Counted from the stretch's first letter, positions 7,848-64,000 are shown. The stretch is 64,000 nucleotides of DNA from Pseudomonadota bacterium (GCA_018823135.1 JAHJJF010000051.1:7674-71673); one strand, 5' to 3'. Numbers and translations: made by a program. The notes: generated by a model from the letters alone, not told the origin.

Positions 7848-9572
7848 TCAGACGGCGAACCATACTGAAAAGGCAATAATGAAAACCGTTGTTTCCACGG
7901 CAAATTCAAGTCGGAACCCTTCGCGGAACCTGCCTTTATCGTAAAAATAAACAAGCGCCCCCTGATAGATTATTCCAGGGCCGAGCCAGTAGGCCGCAAC
8001 CGGAAGCAATCCCATCAAGGGTGCGGACAAGACAATTATTATCAGAAGTGCATTGATGACATGCAGAATAAGCAGCGTTCTTTTTTCACCGATCCAGACC
8101 GGCAGGGTCTCCTTGCCCACCAGCCTGTCACCCAGAATATCAAACACATCAAAAAGCGCGCTTCGCAGGTATGCAAGGAGGAAGACAATAATTGTCCCAC
8201 CCAGTATATAAGGCGTCACCCCCGTTGAACTTTCAAATGCCGGTACCACTACAATCACAAAAGCCCAGGCCATGGCAACAAATATCGACTTTGAGCCCGG
8301 TATTTCCTTGAGTCCTCGAACACGTGTAACAGTGGATAAGGATTTCGGAATGAACCGGACGCTGTATAAAACCCCCAATATGCTCATCCCCAGAAGCAGC
8401 AGGAAGGATTGACTTCCCATACCGAATGCCAGGGTCAGCGAACCGGTAAGGGCTATTGCCGAGGCAATCAGAAAAGTCCATCGGTAGCGGCGATAAAACA
8501 ACGCCCGGATGGGGTCATTGATTTTCTTGGAGCGCTGGTCGGTAAAACGGTTAATATTATGCATGGCAAACAGATAGCCAAATGCCAGAAAAAAATTAGC
8601 GCCGCTCTGTTCGCCGCTCAACAGCTTTCCAAAGGCATAGGCCATAAGCCCTCCACCCAGGCTTATGTAAAAATTTGTTGCAAGCAGAAGCCACAGGAAC
8701 CTATTGATTACCGGGCGGATAAGGCCGTCACTTTTCCCGGGAACCGCTTCCAGGGCCCGCACTACCCACTTTATCATCCAGGAAGGTGTTGAAGCGCCGG
8801 CAGTTACCCCGACACAATCAAATGCAGACAGTGCTTTGATGTCGAGATCTTCCTGGTTTTCGATCATGAACACCGGGCATCCCATTCCCTGGGCAATCTT
8901 GCCGAGTCTTTGGGTATTAGCGCTCGCCTTGCCTCCCACCACAACCATAGCCTGAACTTTCTCACATAATTTCCGAACTTCTTCCTGACGTTTATGGGTG
9001 GAATCGCAGATGGTGTTAAACACTTCGCCGCCGGGGAAATATTCAAGAATCTTCTGACTGATGTTCTCAAAGGATATTTCATCCTGAGTGGTCTGACTGA
9101 CAATAATATAAGGGGCGGCCACCTTCAGCTTTTCAAGGTCTTGTTCGGAACTCACTACATGGCAATTTTCTCCTGCATAACCCATGAGTCCTTCAACCTC
9201 GGCATGGTTTCTGTCACCGATGATAACCGTTGAGTACCCCTTGTTGCGATATTTCTTGATGATAACCTGAACCTTGACAACTCTCGGGCAGGTGGCATCC
9301 TGGACCCTGGCGCCGGAAGCGATCAGCTGCTGTTTCAGGGCCGGCGGAATACCATGGGCCCGGATAATAATTGTTCCCTCGCCCTTTTCAGGAACGTGAT
9401 CCAGAACCCGGACGCCTCGTTCATTGAGGAGATCCAGAACCTGTGGATTATGAATGAGCGGCCCGAACGTGGCAATGCCCTCATCCTCCTTCCGGACAAT
9501 TTCAATGGTGGTTTCCACTGCTCGTCGAACGCCCATGCAGAATCCGGCATGGGCTGCAAGAATAACTTCCAT
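7848..9572 (-). CDS. ispH: 4-hydroxy-3-methylbut-2-enyl diphosphate reductase (IspH/LytB) fused to a C-terminal UbiA-like polytopic membrane domain
   Basis: 574 aa. Residues 1 to about 277 are a full IspH with three cluster Cys (FCMG, ATCP, ICDS). Residues from about 285 to 574 are multi-TM, with DVFDILGDRLVGKETLP (UbiA second Asp-rich motif) and NRFTDQRSKKINDP at the first-motif position. Confidence 0.85.
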   Translation of the reverse strand: MEVILAAHAGFCMGVRRAVETTIEIVRKEDEGIATFGPLIHNPQVLDLLNERGVRVLDHVPEKGEGTIIIRAHGIPPALKQQLIASGARVQDATCPRVVKVQVIIKKYRNKGYSTVIIGDRNHAEVEGLMGYAGENCHVVSSEQDLEKLKVAAPYIIVSQTTQDEISFENISQKILEYFPGGEVFNTICDSTHKRQEEVRKLCEKVQAMVVVGGKASANTQRLGKIAQGMGCPVFMIENQEDLDIKALSAFDCVGVTAGASTPSWMIKWVVRALEAVPGKSDGLIRPVINRFLWLLLATNFYISLGGGLMAYAFGKLLSGEQSGANFFLAFGYLFAMHNINRFTDQRSKKINDPIRALFYRRYRWTFLIASAIALTGSLTLAFGMGSQSFLLLLGMSILGVLYSVRFIPKSLSTVTRVRGLKEIPGSKSIFVAMAWAFVIVVVPAFESSTGVTPYILGGTIIVFLLAYLRSALFDVFDILGDRLVGKETLPVWIGEKRTLLILHVINALLIIIVLSAPLMGLLPVAAYWLGPGIIYQGALVYFYDKGRFREGFRLEFAVETTVFIIAFSVWFAV

Positions 9573-9630
9573 ATTACTTTGGCTTACGATTTATAGATTA
9601 TAAAGTATGTGTATTTGCAGTTTTAAAAAT

Positions 9631-9844
9631 TGTCGGACTCGCAAAAAGCACTCGTCGGACGCGTATTTCTCCTGCAACTTATTAAAATTACAGGTGGCGA
9701 TAATTCAGAATCCGGATTTTTGCGAACCCAGCAATTTTGTCGGACTCGCAAAAAGCACTCGTCGGACGCGTATTTCTCCTGCAACTTATTAAAATTACAG
9801 GTGGCGATAATTCAGAATCCGGCTTTTTGCGAACCCAGCAATTT
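9631..9844 (-). repeat. Tandem duplication of a 107-bp structured intergenic element (2 full copies, 1 mismatch) in the ispH 5' region
   Basis: 9631-9737 and 9738-9844 are identical except A9716 versus C9823. Partial related sequence flanks both ends. The strand is assigned from G.U-only pairings (see findings). Confidence 0.9.
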
Positions 9845-10083
9845 TGCGAAGACTTTAAACATAAACACTTGCTATTGCAAGTGGCATATATGACGCTCTT
9901 TACCCGATGAGATTTAAGTTTTTTCAGCCCGCCCAAAATGTTTTTTAAAATAGAAGATTTACAATCCTTCCTTTAAGTGCATATAGTTATAATAACAAAC
10001 AATGTTTAACAGGATCCGGTTATCAACTTGATTCACCGGAATTATCTCAAAATACAGCATTTACAGTGATAAGGAGGTGCGGC

Positions 10084-10332
10084 ATGTTTACAAAAGAAGA
10101 GTTATGCAAAAAAATTGCGACAGTATTTCCTGATATCGGCCAATGCGGTATTGATGTTAAAGTTGACTTTGAGGGAATAAACAACGCATGGGTCGTTGAT
10201 CTTACCAAAGACAAACACAACCTCAAGACCTATCTGGAGGAAAATGAAGCCAACGACTGCATGAATGGGAAGCAATGCGTTTCCCTGGGATTGCAGATCG
10301 CCCAACTTCGAAAAAATATTGAGATGACCTGA
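10084..10332 (+). CDS. Small hypothetical protein (82 aa)
   Basis: AAGGAGG RBS 6 nt upstream of the ATG at 10084. Protein-like composition; family not recognised. Confidence 0.55.
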   Translation: MFTKEELCKKIATVFPDIGQCGIDVKVDFEGINNAWVVDLTKDKHNLKTYLEENEANDCMNGKQCVSLGLQIAQLRKNIEMT

Positions 10333-17593: not shown

Positions 17594-17628
17594 TAGAAAC
17601 AATCCAGCCTGCCGCGTTTCAAAAGGCA

Positions 17629-17667
17629 TAAAAAAAGCCCGCACAAAATTTGTGCAGGCTTTTTTTA
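17629..17667. terminator. Bidirectional rho-independent terminator between convergent genes
   Basis: A7-AGCCCGCACAAA / TTTGTGCAGGCT-T8. About 11-bp stem with one mismatch, and an A-run and T-run on either side. Confidence 0.8.
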
Positions 17668-17686
17668 TGCAATCTACTTTGCAGAT

Positions 17687-19754: not shown

Positions 19755-21038
19755 TTACAGTAATATCCGAGGATCTGTTATGTGCCCGGCAACAGCGGCA
19801 GCAGCAGCAGTCAACGGACTCATCAGATGTACCATGCCGCCCTTGCCCATTCTGCCGTTAAAATTTCTGTTGGTAGTCGATGCGCAGACCTCGCCTGCGG
19901 CCAGCACGCCGTTGCTCATGCCGAGACAAGCCCCACAGGTGGGATTGGTGACACAGAAACCAGCATCCATGAATATTTTAATAATTCCCTCATCCATGGC
20001 TTTTGAATAAACTGCAGGAGTTGCCGGCGCCAGAATACCGCGAACATGTGCCGCGATCTTCTTTCCTTTGAGAATTCGGGCCGCCTGACGCAAATCCTCA
20101 ATTCTGCCGTTAGTACACGACCCCACATAGACCTGATCAATTACCGTTCCTTCCATATCCGAAACATCCCTGACCTCATCAGGTTTAAATCCATAAGTAA
20201 CCTGGGGCGGCAAAGAGGAAACATCAACAATTGTTTCCTTGGCATATTCAGCATCGGCATCGGAGTGCCATTTTGCAAAATCAGTAACCGCCTGCTCAAT
20301 GGAATCATAGTCTTTTTCAATGAAAGGCCAGAGGTATTCAGCGGTAACCCTATCAGGATAACAGATTCCGCAGGTGCCACCGGCTTCAATCGCCATATTG
20401 CACAATGTCATCCTTGATTCCATGGACATGCGGTCAACAACCGGACCAACGAATTCCATAACCATGTCAGTGGCACCGTTTACGGTCAGTTGCTTGATAA
20501 TATTCAGGATGACATCCTTGGCGTAAACACCGTCCTGTAATGTCCCCTGAATATTTACCCGCATGGTCTGCGGCGTCCTGAACGAACAAACACCCTTCAG
20601 AATGCCCACTTCAAGGTCGGTTGTGCCGATGCCGGCGGCAAAAGCGCCAAAGGCACCATGCGTACAGGTATGCGAGTCACCCATAATTATTGTATAGCCG
20701 GGGCGGATGAAACCTTTTTCCGGAAACAGAGCATGACAGACTCCGTTGCTGCCGATATCAAAAAAATCCCTGATTTGATGCCGGCGGGCCCAGTCTCTGA
20801 GAATTTTCGCCTGGGTTGCAGTCTTGGTATCCTTGGAAGGAGTGACATGGTCGACAACCGCCTTGATTTTTGAAGAATCGAATACCCTGTCCATACCGCG
20901 CGCCACAAGATCGTTAATTGCGATGGGCGTGGTGATTTCATGACACATAACCACATCGAGGTCCAGCACGACATTTTCCGGAGAAGGATTATCCCTTAAG
21001 TGCGCATCAAATATTTTCTGTGTGATGGTTTTACCCAT
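19755..21038 (-). CDS. leuC: 3-isopropylmalate dehydratase large subunit (short archaeal-type form)
   Basis: 427 aa aconitase-family protein with GDSHTCTHGA, VGSCTNGR and NRNFNGRMG motifs. Confidence 0.93.
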   Translation of the reverse strand: MGKTITQKIFDAHLRDNPSPENVVLDLDVVMCHEITTPIAINDLVARGMDRVFDSSKIKAVVDHVTPSKDTKTATQAKILRDWARRHQIRDFFDIGSNGVCHALFPEKGFIRPGYTIIMGDSHTCTHGAFGAFAAGIGTTDLEVGILKGVCSFRTPQTMRVNIQGTLQDGVYAKDVILNIIKQLTVNGATDMVMEFVGPVVDRMSMESRMTLCNMAIEAGGTCGICYPDRVTAEYLWPFIEKDYDSIEQAVTDFAKWHSDADAEYAKETIVDVSSLPPQVTYGFKPDEVRDVSDMEGTVIDQVYVGSCTNGRIEDLRQAARILKGKKIAAHVRGILAPATPAVYSKAMDEGIIKIFMDAGFCVTNPTCGACLGMSNGVLAAGEVCASTTNRNFNGRMGKGGMVHLMSPLTAAAAAVAGHITDPRILL

Positions 21039-21310
21039 TTAACTGAAACCTCCATATTACTAAACTTACTTTTGATTTAATAACTCAAGCCTATAAGCCA
21101 TAACTCACTATAATTATATTTTTAAACTGTATTTATAGCGGGTTAACGATTTTATAAAATATATGTAAGTATTGCCACAAATCAGGAAAGAATACTCGTG
21201 CATAAATTTTCCGTCAATAGTTAGCAATAAAAACACAAAAAACAGATTCCGCATGATGTTTTTTTCACTCGGAATTATACTGATTTCTCGGATTTATTAC
21301 TCGCCAAGTC

Positions 21311-21410
21311 TGTCGGCATCGTAATAAGCACGATCCCGACGTCTATCCCGCTTATAAATTAATGTAATTACCGGGGGCGATAATTCAGCATCTGACATAT
21401 CTCGGGGTCA
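21311..21410 (-). repeat. Copy of the ~100-bp structured intergenic element family, about 270 nt upstream of leuC
   Basis: TGTCGGCATCGTAATAAGCACGATCCCGACGTCTATCCCGC...GGGGCGATAATTCAGCATCTGAC aligns block-for-block with 9631-9737. Confidence 0.75.
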
Positions 21411-21444
21411 GTAAGTTTTGATATTGATTGATTATTCTTTAAGA

Positions 21445-21531: not shown

Positions 21532-23190
21532 ATGATCCCAATAGGGTCGCCTGGAGGGAACTTTCAAGAAAGCAACGAAAACAAAATTGATCTTATTTAT
21601 GAAATAATCAAACATGAATACGGATCAATCCCCAAACTCATATCCACCCTGATTAGCGATGTAATTGATCTTTACGAAGGTCGCTGGCCGACTCATGAAG
21701 CCTGCATGGTCAGGTACCATACCCTTGACCATGCCGTTGATGTCGCTTTGCTCACGGCGAGGATGGCTTCCGGCTGGAACAGGCAGAAAGACCTGCCGAC
21801 CTTTTCCGAAGAAACCTTTCTCTGTGGACTTGCCGCCGCGATGTTTCACGACACCGGCTATATCAAGGACAAAGGCGACAAAAAAGGAACCGGTGGAAAA
21901 TATACCTTTACTCACGAACAGCGGAGCATGAAGCTTGCCGCAAAATACCTGGCAAAACACAAATGGTCTGCCTATGCGGTTGATACCGTGCCCCGCATCA
22001 TCAGCATTACTGAATACCATAATGAACCTGATCCGAAAGCCATTTTCGAAACAGATCCGGAAGAAAATATGGCTAAAATTGTTGCCACTTCCGATCTGGT
22101 CGCCCAGATGGCAGATATTAATTATATTCAACGGATCAATGACCTGTATGCTGAAATCAATGAAGCCTATGAGTTTGATTCCACCGAGATCCTGGCGAAA
22201 CGAGGCATTCATATCTTTAGTTCCGCCCAGGAAATGATTGACGAAACCATTGGTTTTTATGACACTTTCGTGTTGCCGCGCCTGCAACAGTTTGGCCGGA
22301 TGGACCAGTACCTTGTCGGTTTTTTCGGCGGCGGCCGGAACCCCTACCTTGAAAGCATTGCGGCAAATCTCTCCGGTCATCTGATGGATAAACGCATCCA
22401 ATGGCGGCGCCTGGGAGAAATACTTGAAGAACTCGGGGTGGTTAATTCCAGGCAAATAAAAAAAGCACTGGAAAAACAAAAGCGCATTAAGGACAAAGAA
22501 GCGCAAAGAAAAACCTCCGCCTTTTCCTTACAGGGCAAGCTTCATGACTGGATGGACAGCGCTTCACATTCCGGTAAATGCCTTGGTGATATTCTGATGG
22601 AGATGGGTGTCATCGATCCGACCATTCTCCGCAAAGGCATACTCGACCAGATCATGCCCCCTGCATTGATAAATAATCTCTCCTGCAAGGAATTGATTTT
22701 TATACTCAGGATATCAATACTCCTCCAGAATATCAGCAAAGGCCCCTGGGTCTTTGATCAGATCCTGGAAATGACCAATATTCTTCTTGATTGCGAGGCA
22801 AGTTCAATTCTTCTGGCAAACGATGATGCGTCGGAAATGACCGTCCTGATCCCCACCGGTCCCAAAAGAGACTATCTGCTGAAAAAGAAAATCCCAACGG
22901 ACAAGGGCCTTGCCGGCTGGGTGTTCCGGCATGGTCAACCGGCAGTAGTTACAAATGTTGAAATCGACAAACGTTTCGATGATGAAGTGGACAGACATAT
23001 CGGCTTCATCACCCGCTCCGTTCTTGCGGTGCCCCTCCACACCAACGGTGAGATGATCGGTGTCATGGAAGTGGTCAATAAAAGAAATGCCAATTTTAAT
23101 GTGCACGACATGGACATCCTGACCATGCTTGCCAATGTTATTGCCATATCCCTTGGCGGGCTTGTCAAAATGCACGAAGATATATCCTGA
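21532..23190 (+). CDS. HD domain / GspE_N (MshEN-like) repeats / GAF domain signalling protein
   Basis: 552 aa. HD motifs (HTLDHAVDV, FHDTGY); two RLGxxLxxxGhhxxxxLxxxLxxQ-type repeats (RLGEILEELGVVNSRQIKKALEKQ and CLGDILMEMGVIDPTILRKGILDQ); C-terminal GAF (GLAGWVFRHGQPAVV...SVLAVPL). Confidence 0.82.
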   Translation: MIPIGSPGGNFQESNENKIDLIYEIIKHEYGSIPKLISTLISDVIDLYEGRWPTHEACMVRYHTLDHAVDVALLTARMASGWNRQKDLPTFSEETFLCGLAAAMFHDTGYIKDKGDKKGTGGKYTFTHEQRSMKLAAKYLAKHKWSAYAVDTVPRIISITEYHNEPDPKAIFETDPEENMAKIVATSDLVAQMADINYIQRINDLYAEINEAYEFDSTEILAKRGIHIFSSAQEMIDETIGFYDTFVLPRLQQFGRMDQYLVGFFGGGRNPYLESIAANLSGHLMDKRIQWRRLGEILEELGVVNSRQIKKALEKQKRIKDKEAQRKTSAFSLQGKLHDWMDSASHSGKCLGDILMEMGVIDPTILRKGILDQIMPPALINNLSCKELIFILRISILLQNISKGPWVFDQILEMTNILLDCEASSILLANDDASEMTVLIPTGPKRDYLLKKKIPTDKGLAGWVFRHGQPAVVTNVEIDKRFDDEVDRHIGFITRSVLAVPLHTNGEMIGVMEVVNKRNANFNVHDMDILTMLANVIAISLGGLVKMHEDIS

Positions 23191-28912: not shown

Positions 28913-30217
28913 TCAATGAGTTGCACAGGTTAGACACGGGTCAAACATCCGGATACATCTGCCAATCTGCTTTTCCCCCTGCGGTGAAATACTATTTCCA
29001 GAGATATGACCTTGCGCCAGATCCCTTAAAACCATATTGATATAGGCATTATTAAATTGCGTTGCAACCAGAAGTCGTAACCGCTCGATCTTTCCCCTAT
29101 TCACCAGATAACTATGAACCAGCACTCCACGTGGCGCTTCAACAATTCCGATGCCACGGCCGCTCACATCAAAATCAATCTCCGGTGTGGCAAGGTCCTG
29201 CAATTTTATTTTCTTGAGTAGCGCAAGGATCTGTTTTGCTGAAAGAAATATCTCAAGCAGGCGGGCAGTATCAAAGCTGTCCAAATATGTTGTCACATTC
29301 TGCTTGAGGTGTTTGGTGATTCCAAGGTCTTTGAGGTCTTCGTCCTGAAGTACGCCATTATCCTGATAGACTCGTGACAACGGTCCGACAAGAAGAATTC
29401 CCCCAGGAAATCCCATATGGGTGAGATAGGGGAATTTTGCAAATGACCAATCAACCCGAAGCTCGGAGATATGGTCTTCAAGGGAATCGCCGGAAAATTC
29501 CTGACAAACCTTGCCCTGGTCGTCAAAAACCCTGAATTTTTCCCGGCCTGGACGTCCATCATATGTAAGGAAATTAACCCGTTGCCCGGCAGGATAAGGA
29601 ATGCTGTTATGCCCGTAATGATCTTTATCAAGAGTGGAAATCAGGTGGTAGGTGGTTGCTTTAATCTCGGCCGCAATCCGTTTAATTTCATTCAGTTCCT
29701 CTTCAGTGGGCAGAATATTAAACCGGCCGACGGCCATGGACACGGGATGCACAGCGCGTTTGCCGACGATTTCGATGATGCGGTTCCCTGCTTTTCTCAG
29801 GAAAAATGCATCCTCGGCAACTTTAGGATACATCTTTTTCAGATCAAAAAGCCCCTTTGATGAACCAATCAGATCGGGATAAGTCAGAAAAAAATAACTC
29901 AAGGCGTGGCTGCTGATTCTCTCTCCCAGAAGGGCAACCTGCCGAAGCATGTCAACCGAGGGTTCCACCTCGAGGCCCAGGGCATTTTCAACCGCCCTGA
30001 AACCAGCAACCTGATGCGCTGTACTGCATAATCCGCAGATTCTGGAAATGATATGCGGCGCCAGCTCGATACGTTTGCCAATCATGATTTTTTCAAATGC
30101 TCTGAAATCCTGGACCATGAAACGCGCCGCCTTAAGCTCGCCATCTTCCACCTCAATATGGATGTCAGCATTCCCTTCAATCCGCGTTGCTTTTTGAAGA
30201 ACTATTTCCCTGCTCAC
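28913..30217 (-). CDS. [NiFe]-hydrogenase large subunit (group-3-like), no C-terminal extension
   Basis: 434 aa with N-terminal RICGLCSTAH and C-terminal DPCLTCATH followed directly by the stop codon. The GTG start overlaps the small-subunit stop (GTGA). Confidence 0.9.
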   Translation of the reverse strand: MSREIVLQKATRIEGNADIHIEVEDGELKAARFMVQDFRAFEKIMIGKRIELAPHIISRICGLCSTAHQVAGFRAVENALGLEVEPSVDMLRQVALLGERISSHALSYFFLTYPDLIGSSKGLFDLKKMYPKVAEDAFFLRKAGNRIIEIVGKRAVHPVSMAVGRFNILPTEEELNEIKRIAAEIKATTYHLISTLDKDHYGHNSIPYPAGQRVNFLTYDGRPGREKFRVFDDQGKVCQEFSGDSLEDHISELRVDWSFAKFPYLTHMGFPGGILLVGPLSRVYQDNGVLQDEDLKDLGITKHLKQNVTTYLDSFDTARLLEIFLSAKQILALLKKIKLQDLATPEIDFDVSGRGIGIVEAPRGVLVHSYLVNRGKIERLRLLVATQFNNAYINMVLRDLAQGHISGNSISPQGEKQIGRCIRMFDPCLTCATH

Positions 30218-32073
30218 CTGACCCTCATTTTATTAATTTCATTGGAGACCATATCCTGTCTGAGGCTGAATAAGCCGTATTCCTGTTGCTGCAGTTTTTT
30301 TGCAATCTTACGGACATCCTTACGCTCCAGATTGCATCTCTTGGTCAATGAGTCGATGACCACTTCACCATAAGATGATCCATCATATAATTTTTTAAAA
30401 ACCATGTCAGATGGACCTCTGCATCCCCAACAGGACAAACCGTTTTTAGTACAGACGCCGCCGCAACCGCCGCGGGTGAGAAATCCCAGGCAGATCATGC
30501 CATTGGAAACGAAACAGATATTGCTGTCGTCGCTTGCAGAAAACGACTGCAGAGAATTTGAATTATTCCTGGTCACCTTCCGACCGCATTCAGCGCAAAC
30601 CACAGGTGCCACCTTTGGAAATTTTTCGCCATTCATTTCGGAGATGAGATCCATCAAAAGTCGAGGCTGGGGCGGGCAGCCGGCTAAAAAAAAGTCGACC
30701 CTGACATAATTTTCAAGATTCCTGGCTCGCCTGAGGAGGCTGACCCCTCTTTCCTGGTAGGTTGTTTGCAGATCTATGCCGCCCTTGCCTGAAAGATAAT
30801 AAGAAAAAGCATCATGGGCCATGCCATAGGTCTCCTCAATCAGCTCCTCAAGTTCAAAGCGATTGGCCATAGCCGGGACTCCTCCGGTTGCGGCGCAGGT
30901 TCCCCAGGCAATGAGAATTCGAGACTTGTTTCTAGCTTCTTCCAGAATATTCACATCATCTTTAAGACGGACCGCGCCTTCCACCAAGGCAATGTCAACT
31001 TCGGGTATTTCGTCCTGATCCAGAAGCATCGGGCAGTAAACGATTTCCACATTACTCTTAAGCAGTTCATCAAACACCGGGTCATCAATAAGCACTGCAG
31101 AGCACCCCGAGCAGGAAGACAGAGATATCATCGCGATTTTTATGGTTTGCTTTTTGCTGACTAGCGCGCCCCAATTCTGCGGGATAAGGGTGGAGGCCAT
31201 ATACGGGTTGGCGAGCAGAGCATTCTGCCTTCTTAATCGTAAAATCAGAGACTGGAGAATATGAAGGGCGAGTTCGGGTTTTTTTCGAATCTTTTCAAAA
31301 AATTCATCCTGGCTCAACGATACCAACAAAGTCTTTGAGGTAGCCAGAGCAGTGGCTGTTCTCTTGCAACCGCTGATAGTTGCCATCTCTCCAAAAAAAC
31401 CACCGGGGCCAAGAGTGGTGAGCACACATTTTTCTTTTCCGGATTGAATACTTACCTCGATAGAACCTTGTGCAACAAAAAACATAGACTTGGCAGACTC
31501 CCCTTCTTCAAAAATAACCTGGCCCTGCTCCACCCACTCCTCATTGCCTTCAGCATTCCAGATTTTCGAAATGTCTTTAACGGAAATGTCATTCCAGAGA
31601 ATTCCCTGGAAATCCTTTGTCCCGGTGCTGACCATTTTTGAAATGAGGGCACCGGGGCTTAACTCCTGGCTCATACCGAGAGCCAGACGCAGTGTTTCAT
31701 TTTCCACTGCCACTTCCCTGACTTTCTGACTGGATTGGTGTATACGCAGAATAATGCCGCGAAGCAGATGCAGAGAAACACCTGAGTCCTGCCGCATCTT
31801 TTCAAGAAGTGCTTCCCTGGTAAAACAAAGAAGTCGAGTTCGCTCGATTGCTTTGACGGTTGTAAGACGAAGATGGTCGGGAAGCAAGGCAACTTCACCA
31901 AAAAATTCCCCCTTTTCAAGAATGCAGAGGGAGACATTCTCCTCACCTCTCTTGTGGGAAACTTCAACCGCGCCGGATTGGATGATATACAATGAATCGC
32001 CAGAATCATCCTGCTTATATATCACTTTACCTTTTTCATATACGGCACCAAAAAGGTCTTCACCCGCGTTCAT
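30214..32073 (-). CDS. Fusion protein: two cyclic-nucleotide-binding domains plus [NiFe]-hydrogenase small subunit
   Basis: 619 aa. Residues about 1-290 hold two cNMP-binding domains (FGEVALLPDHLRLTTVKA and FFGEMATISGCKRTATALA). From about residue 308 there is a small subunit with SSCSGC, GTCAATGG and AGCPP cysteines, plus distal-cluster cysteines CAEC, GGCGGVC and CWGCRGP. Confidence 0.85.
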   Translation of the reverse strand: MNAGEDLFGAVYEKGKVIYKQDDSGDSLYIIQSGAVEVSHKRGEENVSLCILEKGEFFGEVALLPDHLRLTTVKAIERTRLLCFTREALLEKMRQDSGVSLHLLRGIILRIHQSSQKVREVAVENETLRLALGMSQELSPGALISKMVSTGTKDFQGILWNDISVKDISKIWNAEGNEEWVEQGQVIFEEGESAKSMFFVAQGSIEVSIQSGKEKCVLTTLGPGGFFGEMATISGCKRTATALATSKTLLVSLSQDEFFEKIRKKPELALHILQSLILRLRRQNALLANPYMASTLIPQNWGALVSKKQTIKIAMISLSSCSGCSAVLIDDPVFDELLKSNVEIVYCPMLLDQDEIPEVDIALVEGAVRLKDDVNILEEARNKSRILIAWGTCAATGGVPAMANRFELEELIEETYGMAHDAFSYYLSGKGGIDLQTTYQERGVSLLRRARNLENYVRVDFFLAGCPPQPRLLMDLISEMNGEKFPKVAPVVCAECGRKVTRNNSNSLQSFSASDDSNICFVSNGMICLGFLTRGGCGGVCTKNGLSCWGCRGPSDMVFKKLYDGSSYGEVVIDSLTKRCNLERKDVRKIAKKLQQQEYGLFSLRQDMVSNEINKMRVR

Positions 32074-35043: not shown

Positions 35044-35814
35044 GTGAAAATTCTTACCGCAGGCCTGACCCATAAAGGGCTTGTAAGAAAAACCAATCAG
35101 GACTGCTTTCTAGTCTGTGACCAGTCGCCATCACTTTATATCGTCGCCGACGGCATTGGCGGCAACCTCGCGGGTGAAGTAGCCAGCCGCATGGCAGTTG
35201 ATATCATAAAGGACCATATCAGCAGCGTAAGGTCCGGTGATCAGCCCTATATGAACGGCTTTGACAGATCCCTCTCCGAGTCCCGAAACCGCCTGACTTC
35301 AGCAATACAACTTGCCAACCACATCATCTATCTTGCTTCCAAGGAAAAAACCGAATGGAAAGGAATGGGCACCACCGTTGCGGCAGCCTGGCTTTCCAAA
35401 AGAAATGAACCAAATCTTACCATCGGCCATGTGGGCGACAGCCGCATCTTTCTCATTCGTAATAATACGATCAGGCAGCTCACCAAAGACCATTCGATAC
35501 GCGTTGAACGACGCCAGAACGATTTTCTGCAGGTCTCAACCCATGCATTGGGTCCGCAAATAAAAAATTATCTTTCCCGTGCCGTTGGCACTGATAAAAA
35601 TGTCTGCGTCGACACCCGGGAAATTAAAATTCTCCCGCAGGATAGGTTTCTTCTGGCAAGCGACGGCTTGACCAATATGATAAGCGATGAGGTTATTTTG
35701 AAAATTCTCTGCTCAGAGAACAATCCTGAAAGCGCCTCACAACATTTGATTGACGCAGCAAAAAAGAACGGCGGCCGGGATAATATTACGGTTATTGTGA
35801 TTCATTCGAAATGA
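35044..35814 (+). CDS. PP2C-family Ser/Thr phosphatase
   Basis: 256 aa with ADGIGG, GMGTT, VGDSR, LASDGL and GGRDNITV motifs. GTG start 12 nt after the kinase stop. Confidence 0.9.
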   Translation: MKILTAGLTHKGLVRKTNQDCFLVCDQSPSLYIVADGIGGNLAGEVASRMAVDIIKDHISSVRSGDQPYMNGFDRSLSESRNRLTSAIQLANHIIYLASKEKTEWKGMGTTVAAAWLSKRNEPNLTIGHVGDSRIFLIRNNTIRQLTKDHSIRVERRQNDFLQVSTHALGPQIKNYLSRAVGTDKNVCVDTREIKILPQDRFLLASDGLTNMISDEVILKILCSENNPESASQHLIDAAKKNGGRDNITVIVIHSK

Positions 35815-35842: not shown

Positions 35843-35980
35843 AGGCACAGAGGCAGAAGGCACAAAGTGGGGGGAAAAAAACACCACCCAGACCAACCGT
35901 CATTGAGTACCGTTATTTCTTCGTATTGTATTTCTTTATTCTCTTTTACTCTGTGCCTTCTGCCTTCTGCCTCTGTGCCT
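35843..35980. repeat. Long inverted repeat (about 25-nt GGCAGAA/GGCACAG-rich arms) flanking an ~80-bp core between convergent genes
   Basis: The left arm AGGCACAGAGGCAGAAGGCACAAAG (35843-35867) is complementary to 35949-35980, apart from a 7-nt GAAGGCA duplication and one mismatch. Confidence 0.8.
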
Positions 35981-36074: not shown

Positions 36075-37568
36075 TCAGGATTTATTCAACCGCGTGATAT
36101 GTTCGAGTCCAAGGCTTGCATGGCGGGCAAAGTTTTCGAAATTCTCAAAGCTCATCTGGTCCATGTCGCGGCCGCTGGGGATGCGGTCACAATAAAACAG
36201 GCCAATGGTTTTGCCGCTGACGATTATCGGCGACACAAAAAATTCATCGCCGCCGACGAGCTCCTTGATTTCATCGGACACGAGGTCCGCCACTGAAGAT
36301 TGCGGCTGGCCGATCCAGACGCTCAGATTGTTGTCAAGGACGGTCTTAAAAAGATTCCTTCTCCCGGAAGCGATAAAAATTTTAAACCGTTCAAGCATCT
36401 TTGTCCTTTCAAATCCCAGGACGAATCGCGCATTGAGGTATTGATGGTCCGGGGATACAAGGGCAAACAATGTCCGGTCCATGCCGACTCCCCGGTAAAT
36501 GCCTTCAAGGGTCATTTCAAGAAGCACGTTGAAATTCGGCTTTTCAAAAAGCAAGGCGGTCATCTCGCGAAGAATATCCAGTTGCAGAAGCGGATTATAT
36601 TGCGGGATCTCAGAAGTTTTCGGTTCAAACTCCTCCACCGTGTCGATCATGGACCCATCAGTTTGCTTCGAAACACGACGATCATCTTTGCCCGGCTTGT
36701 AAGGTATTGGAATAATATTTGCCACCTTGCTGACTCCATAGGTCCTGCTCACCCTGGCGGCTTCAAGAGCATTGCCCTGAATCATCTCCTGTATCTCATC
36801 ACGGCCAAAACCCGATATCCGGCTATATTCCCTGACGGTATCAGCCACCTCCTCACTCTGCCAGCCTTTTTCAGCCGCAGCTGCTAGGTCATAACTGATA
36901 TTGATCAGTTGTCCTCTCTTGCCAACTTTCTTCTTGGGGTCCAAGGCTTCTTCGAGCAGAGAATTCAGGTGCCAGTCCTGGACCAGTCGCTGGGTCAATT
37001 TGCGCAACGGAAATCCCAACACCTTCTGCTCCGCCTCTTCCCGAGGAACGCCTTTCTTTATCTCGGCCTTCAAGGCCTCCCCTTCCTGCTTGGCAAAACA
37101 CCAGAAAGCAAGCTCACCGATATTATGCAGCAGGGTTGCGACAAAGATTTCTTCAGAAGATTTGTCTCCCATTTTTTCCGCCATGGACCTCGCCTGGGTG
37201 GCGGCGTGCAGAGATCTGGCAAGTTCGGCCATGAGCAGATCGCGGTTTGCTGAGCGGACAATGGATTCCACCAGAGCAACGGTCAGAGTGATTGCCCGCA
37301 CCTTGTCAAAACCCATGAGCATGATCGCCCGGCTTATGGTACTGATGCTTTTATTTGAAGGATTATAAAAGGCGGTATTGGCAAGTTTTAACACCTTGGC
37401 AGTCATAGCCGTGTCCTGCAATACCACCCTGGTCAATTCCGAAACGGAACTGTCGCTGTTTTCCGCAACACTTACGATTTCCTGAACAGTGCGGCCGAAA
37501 ATCGGCATATCTTCCTGGTTAAGTCGCTGGAGCCAGGCATCAAAATTATTCTCAGGTTTTTTGGACAT
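36075..37568 (-). CDS. HDOD domain / GAF domain signalling protein
   Basis: 497 aa with an N-terminal HDOD region (LKLANTAFYNP...LLHNIGELAFW) and a C-terminal GAF-like domain. Confidence 0.82.
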   Translation of the reverse strand: MSKKPENNFDAWLQRLNQEDMPIFGRTVQEIVSVAENSDSSVSELTRVVLQDTAMTAKVLKLANTAFYNPSNKSISTISRAIMLMGFDKVRAITLTVALVESIVRSANRDLLMAELARSLHAATQARSMAEKMGDKSSEEIFVATLLHNIGELAFWCFAKQEGEALKAEIKKGVPREEAEQKVLGFPLRKLTQRLVQDWHLNSLLEEALDPKKKVGKRGQLINISYDLAAAAEKGWQSEEVADTVREYSRISGFGRDEIQEMIQGNALEAARVSRTYGVSKVANIIPIPYKPGKDDRRVSKQTDGSMIDTVEEFEPKTSEIPQYNPLLQLDILREMTALLFEKPNFNVLLEMTLEGIYRGVGMDRTLFALVSPDHQYLNARFVLGFERTKMLERFKIFIASGRRNLFKTVLDNNLSVWIGQPQSSVADLVSDEIKELVGGDEFFVSPIIVSGKTIGLFYCDRIPSGRDMDQMSFENFENFARHASLGLEHITRLNKS

Positions 37569-61696: not shown

Positions 61697-61724
61697 ATAA
61701 TCATCATCAGAAATAGTTTGTTGT

Positions 61725-61820
61725 TGTCGGCTTGTAAAAAAGGACGATGCCGACGAGTATTCCTCTAATAATTTATTGAAATTATTAGAGGCGACATTAC
61801 TGTGTCCGAATTTTTACATG
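61725..61820 (-). repeat. Copy of the ~100-bp structured intergenic element family in the psd leader
   Basis: TGTCGGCTTGTAAAAAAGGACGATGCCGACGAGTATTCCTCTAATAAT-TTATTGAA-ATTATTAGAGGCGACATTAC...TTTTTACA. It has a perfect 11-bp central stem and a closing TGTAAAAA/TTTTTACA stem. Confidence 0.8.
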
Positions 61821-61937
61821 GTCTCAATCGTTCAATGCTGTCAAAAAAACCACGTAAAACCAGATAACACTATGGCATAAAATAAGCAATAATGTAACTC
61901 CGGATTTGCTCAGCAGGACACTTTTTGTTGTATGCAA

Positions 61938-62555: not shown

Positions 62556-62604
62556 AGTTTTACCCTAATCAATTATGAATACATAAACAGTCAAAATTAG
62601 AAAT

Positions 62605-62706
62605 TATCGACATCGTCAAAAGCACGATGCGCAAGCGTATTCCGCCTTTCACTTTTTAAATAATTGAAGGCGATAATCCAACATCAGACTTTTCGGAGTT
62701 TCGCAT
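62605..62706 (-). repeat. Copy of the ~100-bp structured intergenic element family in the ilvB-ilvN spacer
   Basis: TATCGACATCGTCAAAAGCACGATGCGCAAGCGTATTCCGCCTTTCA...TGAAGGCGATAATCCAACATCAGAC aligns with the 9631, 21311 and 61725 copies. Confidence 0.8.
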
Positions 62707-62742
62707 CTATTATTTTCCTGCGAGACCATCGTTAATTTCCTG

Positions 62743-64000
62743 TTAGACCAACAGCATTTCCGTGGTAGCTTTTCCCGCCGGAACCATTGGATAAACACCC
62801 TCTTCCCTGGCAATAACAAAATCCATAATAACCGTATTATCAGTAGCGAGAGCTTCCCTGATTACCGGCTCAACCTCGCTGGGTTTCGTGGCTCGCAACC
62901 CGACTGCGCCGTAAGCCTGAGCAAGGGCGACAAAATCCGGGGCCGTTTCCAGTCCGGTATGGGCATATTTCTTATCGTAGAACAATTCCTGCCATTGTCG
63001 AACCATTCCCAGATAATTATTGTTGAGGATTGCAACTTTGACAGGCAACTTATATTGCCGGGCGGTTGCAAGCTCTTGAATATTCATTTGAATACTGCCA
63101 TCCCCGGCAATATCAATAACCGTCCTGTCCCGAGCCGCCATCTGGGCGCCGATCGCCGCAGGCAGACCATAGCCCATAACCCCAAGACCACCAGATGTAA
63201 GGAAAGTCCGGGGATGATTGAAATGGTAAAACTGCGCGGCCCACATCTGGTTCTGGCCGACCTCGGTTGAGATAATCGCATCACCATTGGTTAATTCATG
63301 CAGTTTCTGGACAACAAATTGTGGCTTGATGACATCCGGCACCTCTAAATATCCAAGGGGATGTTTGATCTTCCAGTCACTAATCTGCTCAAGCCAGGCT
63401 TCATGTTTTTCCGCAGATTCTTCCTTTTTAAATTCATCATTCCGGTCAAACCAGGTATTCATCGCGGTGAGCGCATGCTTGCAATCCGCAACAATAGGTA
63501 TATCAACCCTGACATTCTTACTGATTGATGATGGATCAATGTCAATATGAATGATTTTGGCGTGCGGCGCAAAAGCATCAATCCTGCCGGTTACCCGATC
63601 ATCAAATCTCGATCCCACGGCAATAAGCAGATCGCAGTTGGCTACCGCCATATTCGCATAATAGGTTCCGTGCATCCCAAGCATCCCCATAGACAGAGGA
63701 TCGGTTCCGGGAAACCCCCCCAATCCCATGAGTGTCATGGTGACCGGAACCGACAATTTCGTTGCCAGATCGGTTAATTCTTCATGTGACTTGGAAGCAA
63801 TAACGCCGCCGCCGGCATAAATAACCGGTTTCCTGGCTTTCATAATTGCTTTGCAGGCCTTTTCAATCTGACCCGGGTGCGGCTCATAGGTCGGCCGGTA
63901 TGTACGCATCTTAACCGGTTTCGGTTCGGGGAAATTAAACATTGCGCTAACAATATCTTTCGGCAGATCAACGAGAACCGGACCCGGTCGACCAGTCCGC
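62743..64000 (-). CDS. ilvB: Acetolactate synthase large subunit (5' end outside the window)
   Basis: The reading frame is open to the window edge (…GRPGPVLVDLPKDIV…). The TPP-binding motif GDGSIQMNIQEL is present, and the stop is at 62743. Confidence 0.94.
   Translation of the reverse strand, partial: RTGRPGPVLVDLPKDIVSAMFNFPEPKPVKMRTYRPTYEPHPGQIEKACKAIMKARKPVIYAGGGVIASKSHEELTDLATKLSVPVTMTLMGLGGFPGTDPLSMGMLGMHGTYYANMAVANCDLLIAVGSRFDDRVTGRIDAFAPHAKIIHIDIDPSSISKNVRVDIPIVADCKHALTAMNTWFDRNDEFKKEESAEKHEAWLEQISDWKIKHPLGYLEVPDVIKPQFVVQKLHELTNGDAIISTEVGQNQMWAAQFYHFNHPRTFLTSGGLGVMGYGLPAAIGAQMAARDRTVIDIAGDGSIQMNIQELATARQYKLPVKVAILNNNYLGMVRQWQELFYDKKYAHTGLETAPDFVALAQAYGAVGLRATKPSEVEPVIREALATDNTVIMDFVIAREEGVYPMVPAGKATTEMLLV

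Follow-up and report, generated by a model that had tools for sequence, protein, structure and literature searches.

A tandem repeat upstream of ispH in an uncultured Desulfobulbales-like bacterium as a probable, recently doubled member of a structured intergenic repeat family

The tandem pair beside ispH

The window analyzed here, a stretch of 64,000 nucleotides, comes from an uncultured Desulfobulbales-like groundwater bacterium. The minus-strand gene ispH (7848..9572; ORF and Pfam) encodes a 574-aa IspH(LYTB)-UbiA fusion, in which the LYTB (IspH) domain is followed by a C-terminal UbiA-family prenyltransferase membrane domain. This two-domain architecture was found in all of the best 120 homologues listed, and those listed with source names came from Desulfobulbales, Desulfobacterales or Thermodesulfobacteriota. 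The tandem repeat studied here has ispH as its left neighbor; on its other side, the deposited annotation places a divergent gene for an 82-aa product to which no function is assigned (10084..10332, plus strand).

Tandem Repeats Finder (TRF) described an array at 9630-9846 with a period of 107, 2.0 copies, 99% matches and no indels, starting 57 to 58 nt from the ispH ATG at 9572. The array consists of unit 1 (9630..9736; nhmmer E = 1e-33) and unit 2 (9737-9843), the latter followed by a TTG that is common to the unit start and the right flank (9737..9846 with the TTG; covariance model score 123.8 bits), and at the junction CAGCAATT is directly followed by TTGTCGGAC. The sole difference between the units is A9716 in unit 1 versus C9823 in unit 2 (1 in 107), and when this site is allowed, the run of identity is 110 nt, i.e., 107 nt plus the shared TTG. 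The near-perfect 107-bp tandem duplication described by the sequence-only reading was thus borne out by both TRF and the sequence itself. The partial, more diverged units which that reading saw on both sides of the array were rejected, given that in-register identity was at chance level on the left (7/25, p ~0.38) as well as on the right (0/9 beyond the shared TTG). The ORFs running through the array had been called artefacts, and this was upheld: the deposited annotation has no gene there, a protein search found no homologue, and a stop codon closes the frame in the diverged copy at 21310 (see below). That protein search, with a through-repeat ORF as query, was also aimed at spurious ORFs on other copies, and it gave no match.

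The sequence is derived from a short-read metagenome-assembled genome (MAG), and the one-site difference between the units could be a population polymorphism, so it could be argued that the duplication is an assembly artefact, for instance if the A and C strain variants of one single-copy element had been joined in series. An independent assembly of the same organism, made with a different assembler from a different sequencing run, was provided by Logan (k = 31, run SRR2540949); the run is listed in a study of deep terrestrial subsurface biofilms (PMC5364579). Between the Logan contigs and the window there were 11 mismatches over 9.6 kb on one flank and 2 over 4.6 kb on the opposite one, and the contigs stopped short of crossing the array. 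The ispH-side contig ended at 9659 and the far-side contig began at 9817; relative to the boundaries of the repeated segment at 9630 and 9846, each of these points lies exactly 30 nt (k-1) inward. A de Bruijn graph breaks k-1 nt inside a repeat when the unit has two left and two right contexts; the unit must therefore occur in at least two contexts in SRR2540949 too. Furthermore, any assembler needs the unit-unit junction sequence in the reads to build such an array, and the diverged copies elsewhere were assembled through without breaks. Another 50-200-kb contig on record carries ilvN and mostly the same neighbor genes and is thus unbroken at the two diverged copies flanking ilvN. The sequence-only reading had itself raised assembly collapse or expansion as a concern; with a second assembly breaking at both repeat ends, we regard an artefact as extremely improbable.

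The Logan contigs also bear on the number of units. In the window, 31-mers are unique from 9793 on, owing to C9823, and the break at 9817 despite these unique 31-mers indicates that a C-type unit also precedes another unit in SRR2540949, and consequently that the A/C difference is not fixed. By this reasoning, either both units carry C in that run or more than two units would be present. The copy number at the ispH locus is therefore at least two, and the short-read assemblies are compatible with more. This tandem array could potentially serve as a strain marker of the VNTR type.

Diverged copies at three other loci and their predicted folds

Rather than being specific to the region upstream of ispH, the unit turned out to be one of a dispersed family, whose other members adjoin a leuC-like gene, psd and ilvN. 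A repeat search found one diverged copy at 21310..21416 (64% identity to the unit, same orientation; nhmmer E = 4e-31, covariance model score 102 bits) and another at 61724..61830 (61% identity; also found with nhmmer and the covariance model), and a profile built from the copies then found a third, with a 1-nt deletion, at ~62604..62709 (nhmmer E = 1.7e-12, 95 bits). The family thus has five copies at four loci in ~80 kb, alignable over ~105 nt (nhmmer E 1e-12 to 1e-34), and the four independent copies score 95 to 124 bits with the covariance model. The ~80 kb refers to contig JAHIYX010000075.1 (MAG GCA_018814865.1), which comprises the window plus 16 kb, and no further copies were found in these 16 kb. 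Identity of the diverged copies to the unit is ~60-65%. Compared with the 36-39% difference between dispersed copies, the difference of 1 in 107 within the array supports the earlier view that the duplication is very recent, here relative to the age of the family. All these family-level results come from four independent copies only.

All five copies are intergenic and have one orientation. According to Pfam assignments, copy 21310 lies in a divergent spacer between an aconitase-family (leuC-like) gene (19755..21038, minus strand) and an HD-GAF gene (21532..23190, plus strand). Copy 61724 follows a strong terminator hairpin of ilvN (61975-61946) and comes within 27 nt of the psd start (61696). 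Relatives share the psd start codon, but here the 27 nt between it and the repeat copy (61697-61723) lack the Shine-Dalgarno sequence found in those relatives (AAGGAA or GGAG). Copy 62604 is located in the ilvB-ilvN intercistronic spacer, with ~50 nt between its end and the ilvN start (62555). Its right edge abuts an imperfect 22-nt tandem repeat (62704-62750; 2.1 copies, 80% matches) that extends over the ilvB stop and may be a local duplication from the arrival of the element. Overall, three downstream genes have their start codons 27-57 nt from an element edge; the corresponding distance is 272 nt for the leuC-like start, and at least 34 nt separate the element from the ilvB stop. The neighbor genes are functionally mixed (ispH, leuC-like, ilvN and psd by Pfam). 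GC skew is negative over the whole window, which therefore represents one replichore, and only two co-directional loci are informative on orientation relative to transcription; for these reasons, the uniform orientation can be assigned to neither replication nor transcription.

Searches for the family elsewhere gave no additional members. Rfam 15 produced no gathering-level matches in the window and nothing at E <= 1 on any of the copies; the only Rfam match on the array, to L25-leader, reached 22.5 bits, below its threshold of 34.1 bits. A degenerate pattern made from the conserved blocks (TCGCC-N24-32-RATAS-N9-13-GTSCTT...CGAYA, with zero mismatches allowed) matched 12 times in reference genomes (596 Gb), 16 times in metagenome contigs and once in viral contigs, counts that approximate the chance expectation, and nhmmer identified none of these as family members. 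The source MAG is evidently absent from the scanned genome and metagenome collections. No match was obtained with blastn against plasmid, phage and E. coli records.

When read on the minus strand, the copies share the blocks CUGAAUUAUCGCC, RAUAS, CGUCGG, AUCGUGCUU and GCCGACAA at fixed spacings of 28 nt (27 in copy 62604) and 11 nt. The most conserved block in the alignments, CTGAATTATCGCC (9696..9708, minus strand), recurs exactly at 9803-9815 and 21376-21388, and with two mismatches at 62669-62681. The conserved blocks sit in predicted unpaired regions, and the GC content of the elements is 37-44%. Two hairpins recur: a central, AT-rich hairpin that varies between copies (e.g., CCUGUAAUUU/AAGUUGCAGG versus CCUCUAAUAAUUU/AAAUUAUUAGAGG), and a GC-rich GUCGG...CCGAC hairpin with an inner AUCGU/ACGAU stem, with per-copy hairpin z-scores down to -8. 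In the MAFFT alignment, 80-83% of cells were paired, compared to 32-50% with the partners slid by 1 to 3 columns; changes on both sides were seen in 5-6 pairs, and sliding the partners gave 0-4 such pairs. For a set of four independent sequences, these figures are suggestive of hairpins being partly kept by compensatory changes.

The fold previously proposed for the unit, with the closing stem TCGCAAAAA/TTTTTGCGA and the internal stem CCTGCAA/TTACAGG, is present and correctly described for units 1 and 2. On the minus strand, both units folded better than shuffled controls (z -2.1 and -3.4), while on the plus strand they were no better than dinucleotide shuffles (z -0.1 and -1.8). C9823 adds a G-C pair to the closing stem of unit 2, with a fold energy of -36.7 versus -30.6 kcal/mol. 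Only units 1 and 2 have a strong closing stem (-22.5 kcal/mol, z -4.6); in copy 61724 this stem is of modest strength, and in copies 21310 and 62604 it does no better than shuffles. The GC-rich hairpin is weakest in units 1 and 2, and it shares nucleotides with the closing stem, so that the two are mutually exclusive. Copy 61724 folded better as a plus-strand RNA (z -4.6 versus -3.6), and copy 62604 folded equally on both strands. The argument that G.U pairs mark an RNA transcribed in the ispH direction therefore holds as a minus-strand preference within units 1 and 2, but it does not extend to the family, in which copy 61724 prefers the opposite strand.

Position relative to ispH and comparison with relatives

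The strand preference in the array was part of the case for an ispH leader. In this proposal, the array is the transcribed minus-strand 5' leader of ispH and acts as an ispH-specific regulatory RNA, the dose of which was doubled by the duplication. In addition to minus-strand folds that beat shuffles and G.U pairs that favor this strand, the closeness of the array to ispH fits the proposal. However, a sigma-70-like sequence, TTAAAA-18-TATAAT (9597..9626, minus strand; 10/12 positions with a perfect -10, a consensus match only), falls between the array and the ispH start, so that the array, which had been placed within the ispH leader, may instead lie upstream of it. The 82-aa gene also has a promoter-like site by consensus match (9958-9987, plus strand). 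Four sigma-70-like matches were counted in the ispH-array region versus 2.2 expected, and at the other copies promoter-like sites were no commoner than in shuffles. If both promoter-like sites were used, a condition to which we give little weight, the array would sit in an untranscribed spacer between divergent promoters, outside the ispH leader. Judged from these matches, the array is most likely situated just upstream of the ispH promoter and would have little or no specific role in ispH control. Directly upstream of the array (9856-9883, minus strand), a terminator-like hairpin, CACTTGCAATAGCAAGTG, is followed by a T-rich tail, with no minus-strand gene feeding into it.

Relatives were then considered. 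The nearest IspH-UbiA relatives are only 61-66% identical, and four of them were compared upstream of ispH. Relatives keep the order lon - LPG_synthase_C - (small gene) - ispH - ftsY, and long ispH upstream spacers, a point in favor of a leader, occur there as well. The full element was absent upstream of ispH in all four relatives (nhmmer, and the covariance model with filters off); three had no significant similarity at all in this region, and one keeps a 19-nt block. Similarly, ilvB and ilvN are 187 nt apart in the window, compared to spacers of 29 and 45 nt containing a plain RBS in relatives (IlvN 84% identical), and from ilvN to psd the distance is 376 nt here versus 107 and 177 nt. No element was detected in either of these spacers in the relatives, and the covariance model found none upstream of ilvB in the window. 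With empty sites at all three comparable loci, the element appears as a lineage-specific insertion there. The missing orthologues at ispH, the promoter-like sequence in between, the presence of the unit at three other unrelated loci and a strand asymmetry that fails across the family all count against the leader proposal, which we therefore hold to be very unlikely.

The 19-nt block is found in the relative with a 63% identical IspH (loci L032, L033 and L034), where CCGG-TTCTGGATTATCGC, oriented as in the family, precedes ispH by ~120 nt. It matches the most conserved block of the family at 18/19 positions; of 300 shuffles, none beat the L032 score and one beat that of L034. The pattern occurred nowhere else among the loci fetched from other organisms, and these three loci contain no full element. 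The block could represent an old, retained functional site. Within this region, an 18-nt segment, CCGGTTCTGGATTATCGC, is located at 9864-9883 in L032, is also present in L033 and is found at ~8069-8088 in L034. Approximately 60 nt past the block, a hairpin with a U-run (ACAGCGCG...CGUGACUGU UUUUUUU) precedes ispH in these loci, by its look a possible attenuator. Unit-like segments seen by eye upstream of ispH in other relatives (L031, L039 and L040; CGGATACAGTAAG, ATCGTGC and GTCGGTCGCAAAATGAC) were not significant when local alignments were compared with shuffles and were discarded.

A structured repeat family and its likely nature

Since the copies are short, structured and dispersed, we compared them with known systems, beginning with miniature inverted-repeat elements (MITEs) and using the criteria from Delihas 2011 (PMC3184786). 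The same source gives reference sizes of ~104-157 bp for Correia/NEMIS (Neisseria), ~127 bp for ERIC/IRU (Enterobacteriaceae) and 107 bp for RUP (S. pneumoniae), and it also describes Chunjie (Geobacter). The elements here are likewise small (105-107 nt, where MITEs usually stay below 200 bp) and non-coding, with no conserved ORF (an in-frame stop in copy 21310), and they are dispersed in intergenic positions, with four loci in ~80 kb and filled/empty sites at 3 of 3 compared loci. They also resemble Correia, ERIC, RUP and Chunjie in being imperfect palindromes that would give RNA stem-loops, and in having some copies co-transcribed in operons. Other hallmarks were weak. A terminal inverted repeat was significant in only one of the four independent copies: it matched at 14/18 positions in units 1 and 2 (p<0.001), there was an 8-nt match in copy 61724 (p=0.056), and none was found in copies 21310 and 62604 (p ~0.3). 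The best flanking repeats, of 3-5 nt (with +/-4 nt slack), equaled those at 2000 random positions, so no target-site duplication beyond chance was detected; in this comparison, the ends could not be fixed from relatives that are too diverged. A TTN flanking repeat (TTG/TTG/TTG, TTA/TTA, TTG/TTC and CTG/TTT) was considered as a target-site duplication and dropped, being at chance in the formal test; TT is conserved at both alignment ends and is therefore probably part of the element. Unlike in known MITEs, conservation is in internal blocks rather than at the termini, no partner IS or transposase was identified, and there is no sequence similarity to E. coli, plasmid or phage records. By Pfam, no transposase, integrase, RAYT-like or HUH genes were identified among the genes examined in ~80 kb. 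Judged from its sequence, the element also lacked the core sites, spacing or T-runs expected of an integron attC site, a sigma-54 promoter, IS200/IS605 ends or an intrinsic terminator, and these identities were rejected.

It could also be hypothesized that the element acts at the DNA level. As a platform or a cruciform, it might bind a nucleoid-associated protein, gyrase or a regulator; alternatively, it might be the substrate of an HUH-type ssDNA transposase that reads its hairpins. Hairpins that are DNA palindromes folding about equally on either strand would fit this, as would an ispH array that is probably in an untranscribed spacer between divergent promoters; in addition, an ssDNA transposase would explain why 5 of 5 copies, in a window of one replichore, have a uniform orientation relative to replication. 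However, four loci in one replichore are insufficient for an orientation bias, the genes examined include no HUH or RAYT gene, and no conserved flanking tetranucleotide was seen. Moreover, IS200/IS605 ends share one hairpin type, and the two hairpins here are unlike each other. A DNA-level element thus appears quite improbable.

The mycobacterial MIRUs (units of 40-100 nt), which are the basis of VNTR typing, offer a second comparison. Like MIRUs, the elements occur in intercistronic operon spacers and are missing from the homologous spacers of a relative; here, copy 62604 is intercistronic (ilvB-ilvN), and copy 61724 is also between co-directional genes, but past a terminator. Internal GC-rich inverted repeats are a further likeness, and the head-to-tail tandem arrangement, with copy numbers that vary in MIRU, is a partial one. 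In contrast to MIRUs, whose small ORFs overlap the flanking stop and start codons, the elements here are clear of coding regions and their frame is not conserved, and a tandem arrangement is found at only one of four loci. REP/BIME sequences are similar in being extragenic and hairpin-forming, and they may cluster; REPs are often present in transcripts, affecting mRNA stability. A REP is, however, a GC-rich single hairpin of 20-40 nt with an associated RAYT gene, while the element here is ~105 nt, AT-rich and composed of two unlike hairpins plus conserved unpaired blocks.

Together, these comparisons suggest that the array is a recently doubled member of a new structured intergenic repeat family of the REP/ERIC/Correia/RUP/MITE/MIRU kind, a reading to which we assign a probability of roughly 0.6. 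The kind of element is well known; the family itself is previously undescribed. The family has spread into spacers by unrelated housekeeping genes (ispH, leuC-like, ilvN and psd), presumably via a trans-acting mobilization system or by recombination. Very recently, the ispH-side copy has been doubled in head-to-tail order. What was duplicated has the same ends as the element defined by the family alignments and is one whole element, with TTG microhomology at its bounds. The doubling could have come from recombination at the TTG, of the slipped-strand or the unequal type, or from insertion of another element next to the existing one, and these routes are indistinguishable; the doubling is probably young or still polymorphic. 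For a copy inside a transcript, which is certain only for ilvB-ilvN, the hairpins would probably be a passive determinant of mRNA processing or stability, as for ERIC, REP and Correia. The repeat-family reading is weakened by the mobile-element hallmarks described above (terminal inverted repeat, target-site duplication and the lack of an identified transposase). Old copies that keep discrete unpaired blocks and hairpins would also fit host-selected functional RNA or DNA motifs.

The latter alternative, the main rival, holds that the family is kept by selection in the host, either as a structured RNA acting in cis or as an RNA or DNA motif to which a protein binds, and that it controls the downstream minus-strand genes ispH, leuC-like, ilvN and psd. 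Mechanistically, single-stranded CUGAAUUAUCGCC next to a variable hairpin could recruit a factor, or the closing stem and the 3' hairpin could form a switch. The elements do share features with riboswitches and leader RNAs, i.e., conserved unpaired sequence beside covarying stems and two mutually exclusive helices, a short distance 5' of start codons. In line with this, the conserved blocks are in predicted loops while the stems vary with compensatory changes, the overlap of closing stem and 3' hairpin makes these helices exclusive, at three of four loci a start codon lies 27-57 nt from the element, two of four are at branched-chain amino-acid genes (ilvN and leuC-like), and the core block is present upstream of ispH, in the same orientation, in the relative with a 63% identical IspH. 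Against selection by the host, the element was missing at 3/3 orthologous sites examined in relatives, and of the two ilv copies one separates ilvB from ilvN and the other follows ilvN; neither precedes the operon, and there is none upstream of ilvB. No terminator or RBS-sequestering expression platform was found, there is no consistent folding strand preference, only two co-directional loci inform on orientation, and Rfam holds no relative. Compared to riboswitches and leader RNAs, the family thus lacks conservation at orthologous positions, a coherent regulon and an expression platform, and it occurs twice in one operon. On balance, host selection of the family seems rather unlikely.

A broader version of this idea holds that the elements are not selfish repeats but lineage-restricted functional RNA or ssDNA modules, exerting common post-transcriptional control over isoprenoid, branched-chain amino-acid and phospholipid genes. 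In such modules, unpaired CUGAAUUAUCGCC sits beside a variable hairpin, and the closing stem competes with the 3' GC-rich hairpin. We consider it distinctly unlikely that such common control exists. If it did hold, the 19-nt remnant in the relative would be an orthologous selected site and the ispH duplication a change in dosage.

An array that would have been taken for a candidate riboswitch or leader of ispH is better accounted for by a repeat family, one member of which has just duplicated. The analysis adds an undescribed structured intergenic repeat family in an uncultured deep-subsurface Desulfobulbales-like lineage, and the family opens no long-standing question. It is relevant to MAG assembly because such repeats break contigs, and the ilvB-ilvN copy is a small natural test of how well a tight operon junction tolerates a ~105-nt hairpin insertion.

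Three other features of the window were noted. A 22-bp hairpin at 17626-17670, which has a loop of 1 nt and is flanked on either side by A/T runs, has the appearance of a typical bidirectional terminator; its Thr_leader matches in Rfam, obtained for each strand, were weak and sub-threshold (38 bits, with the gathering score at 55 bits). A 23-nt inverted repeat that has no relation to the 107-nt family (35843-35980; 96% complementary, 92-nt spacer, arms containing 7-8-nt micro-repeats) is situated between convergent genes for a PP2C phosphatase (35044..35814, plus strand) and an HDOD protein (36075..37568, minus strand). Finally, at 28913-32073 on the minus strand, a 619-aa protein with two cyclic-nucleotide-binding domains and a NiFe-hydrogenase small-subunit-like domain (Oxidored_q6) adjoins a 434-aa NiFeSe-hydrogenase large-subunit-like protein, the two making up an unusual, sensory-looking hydrogenase pair.
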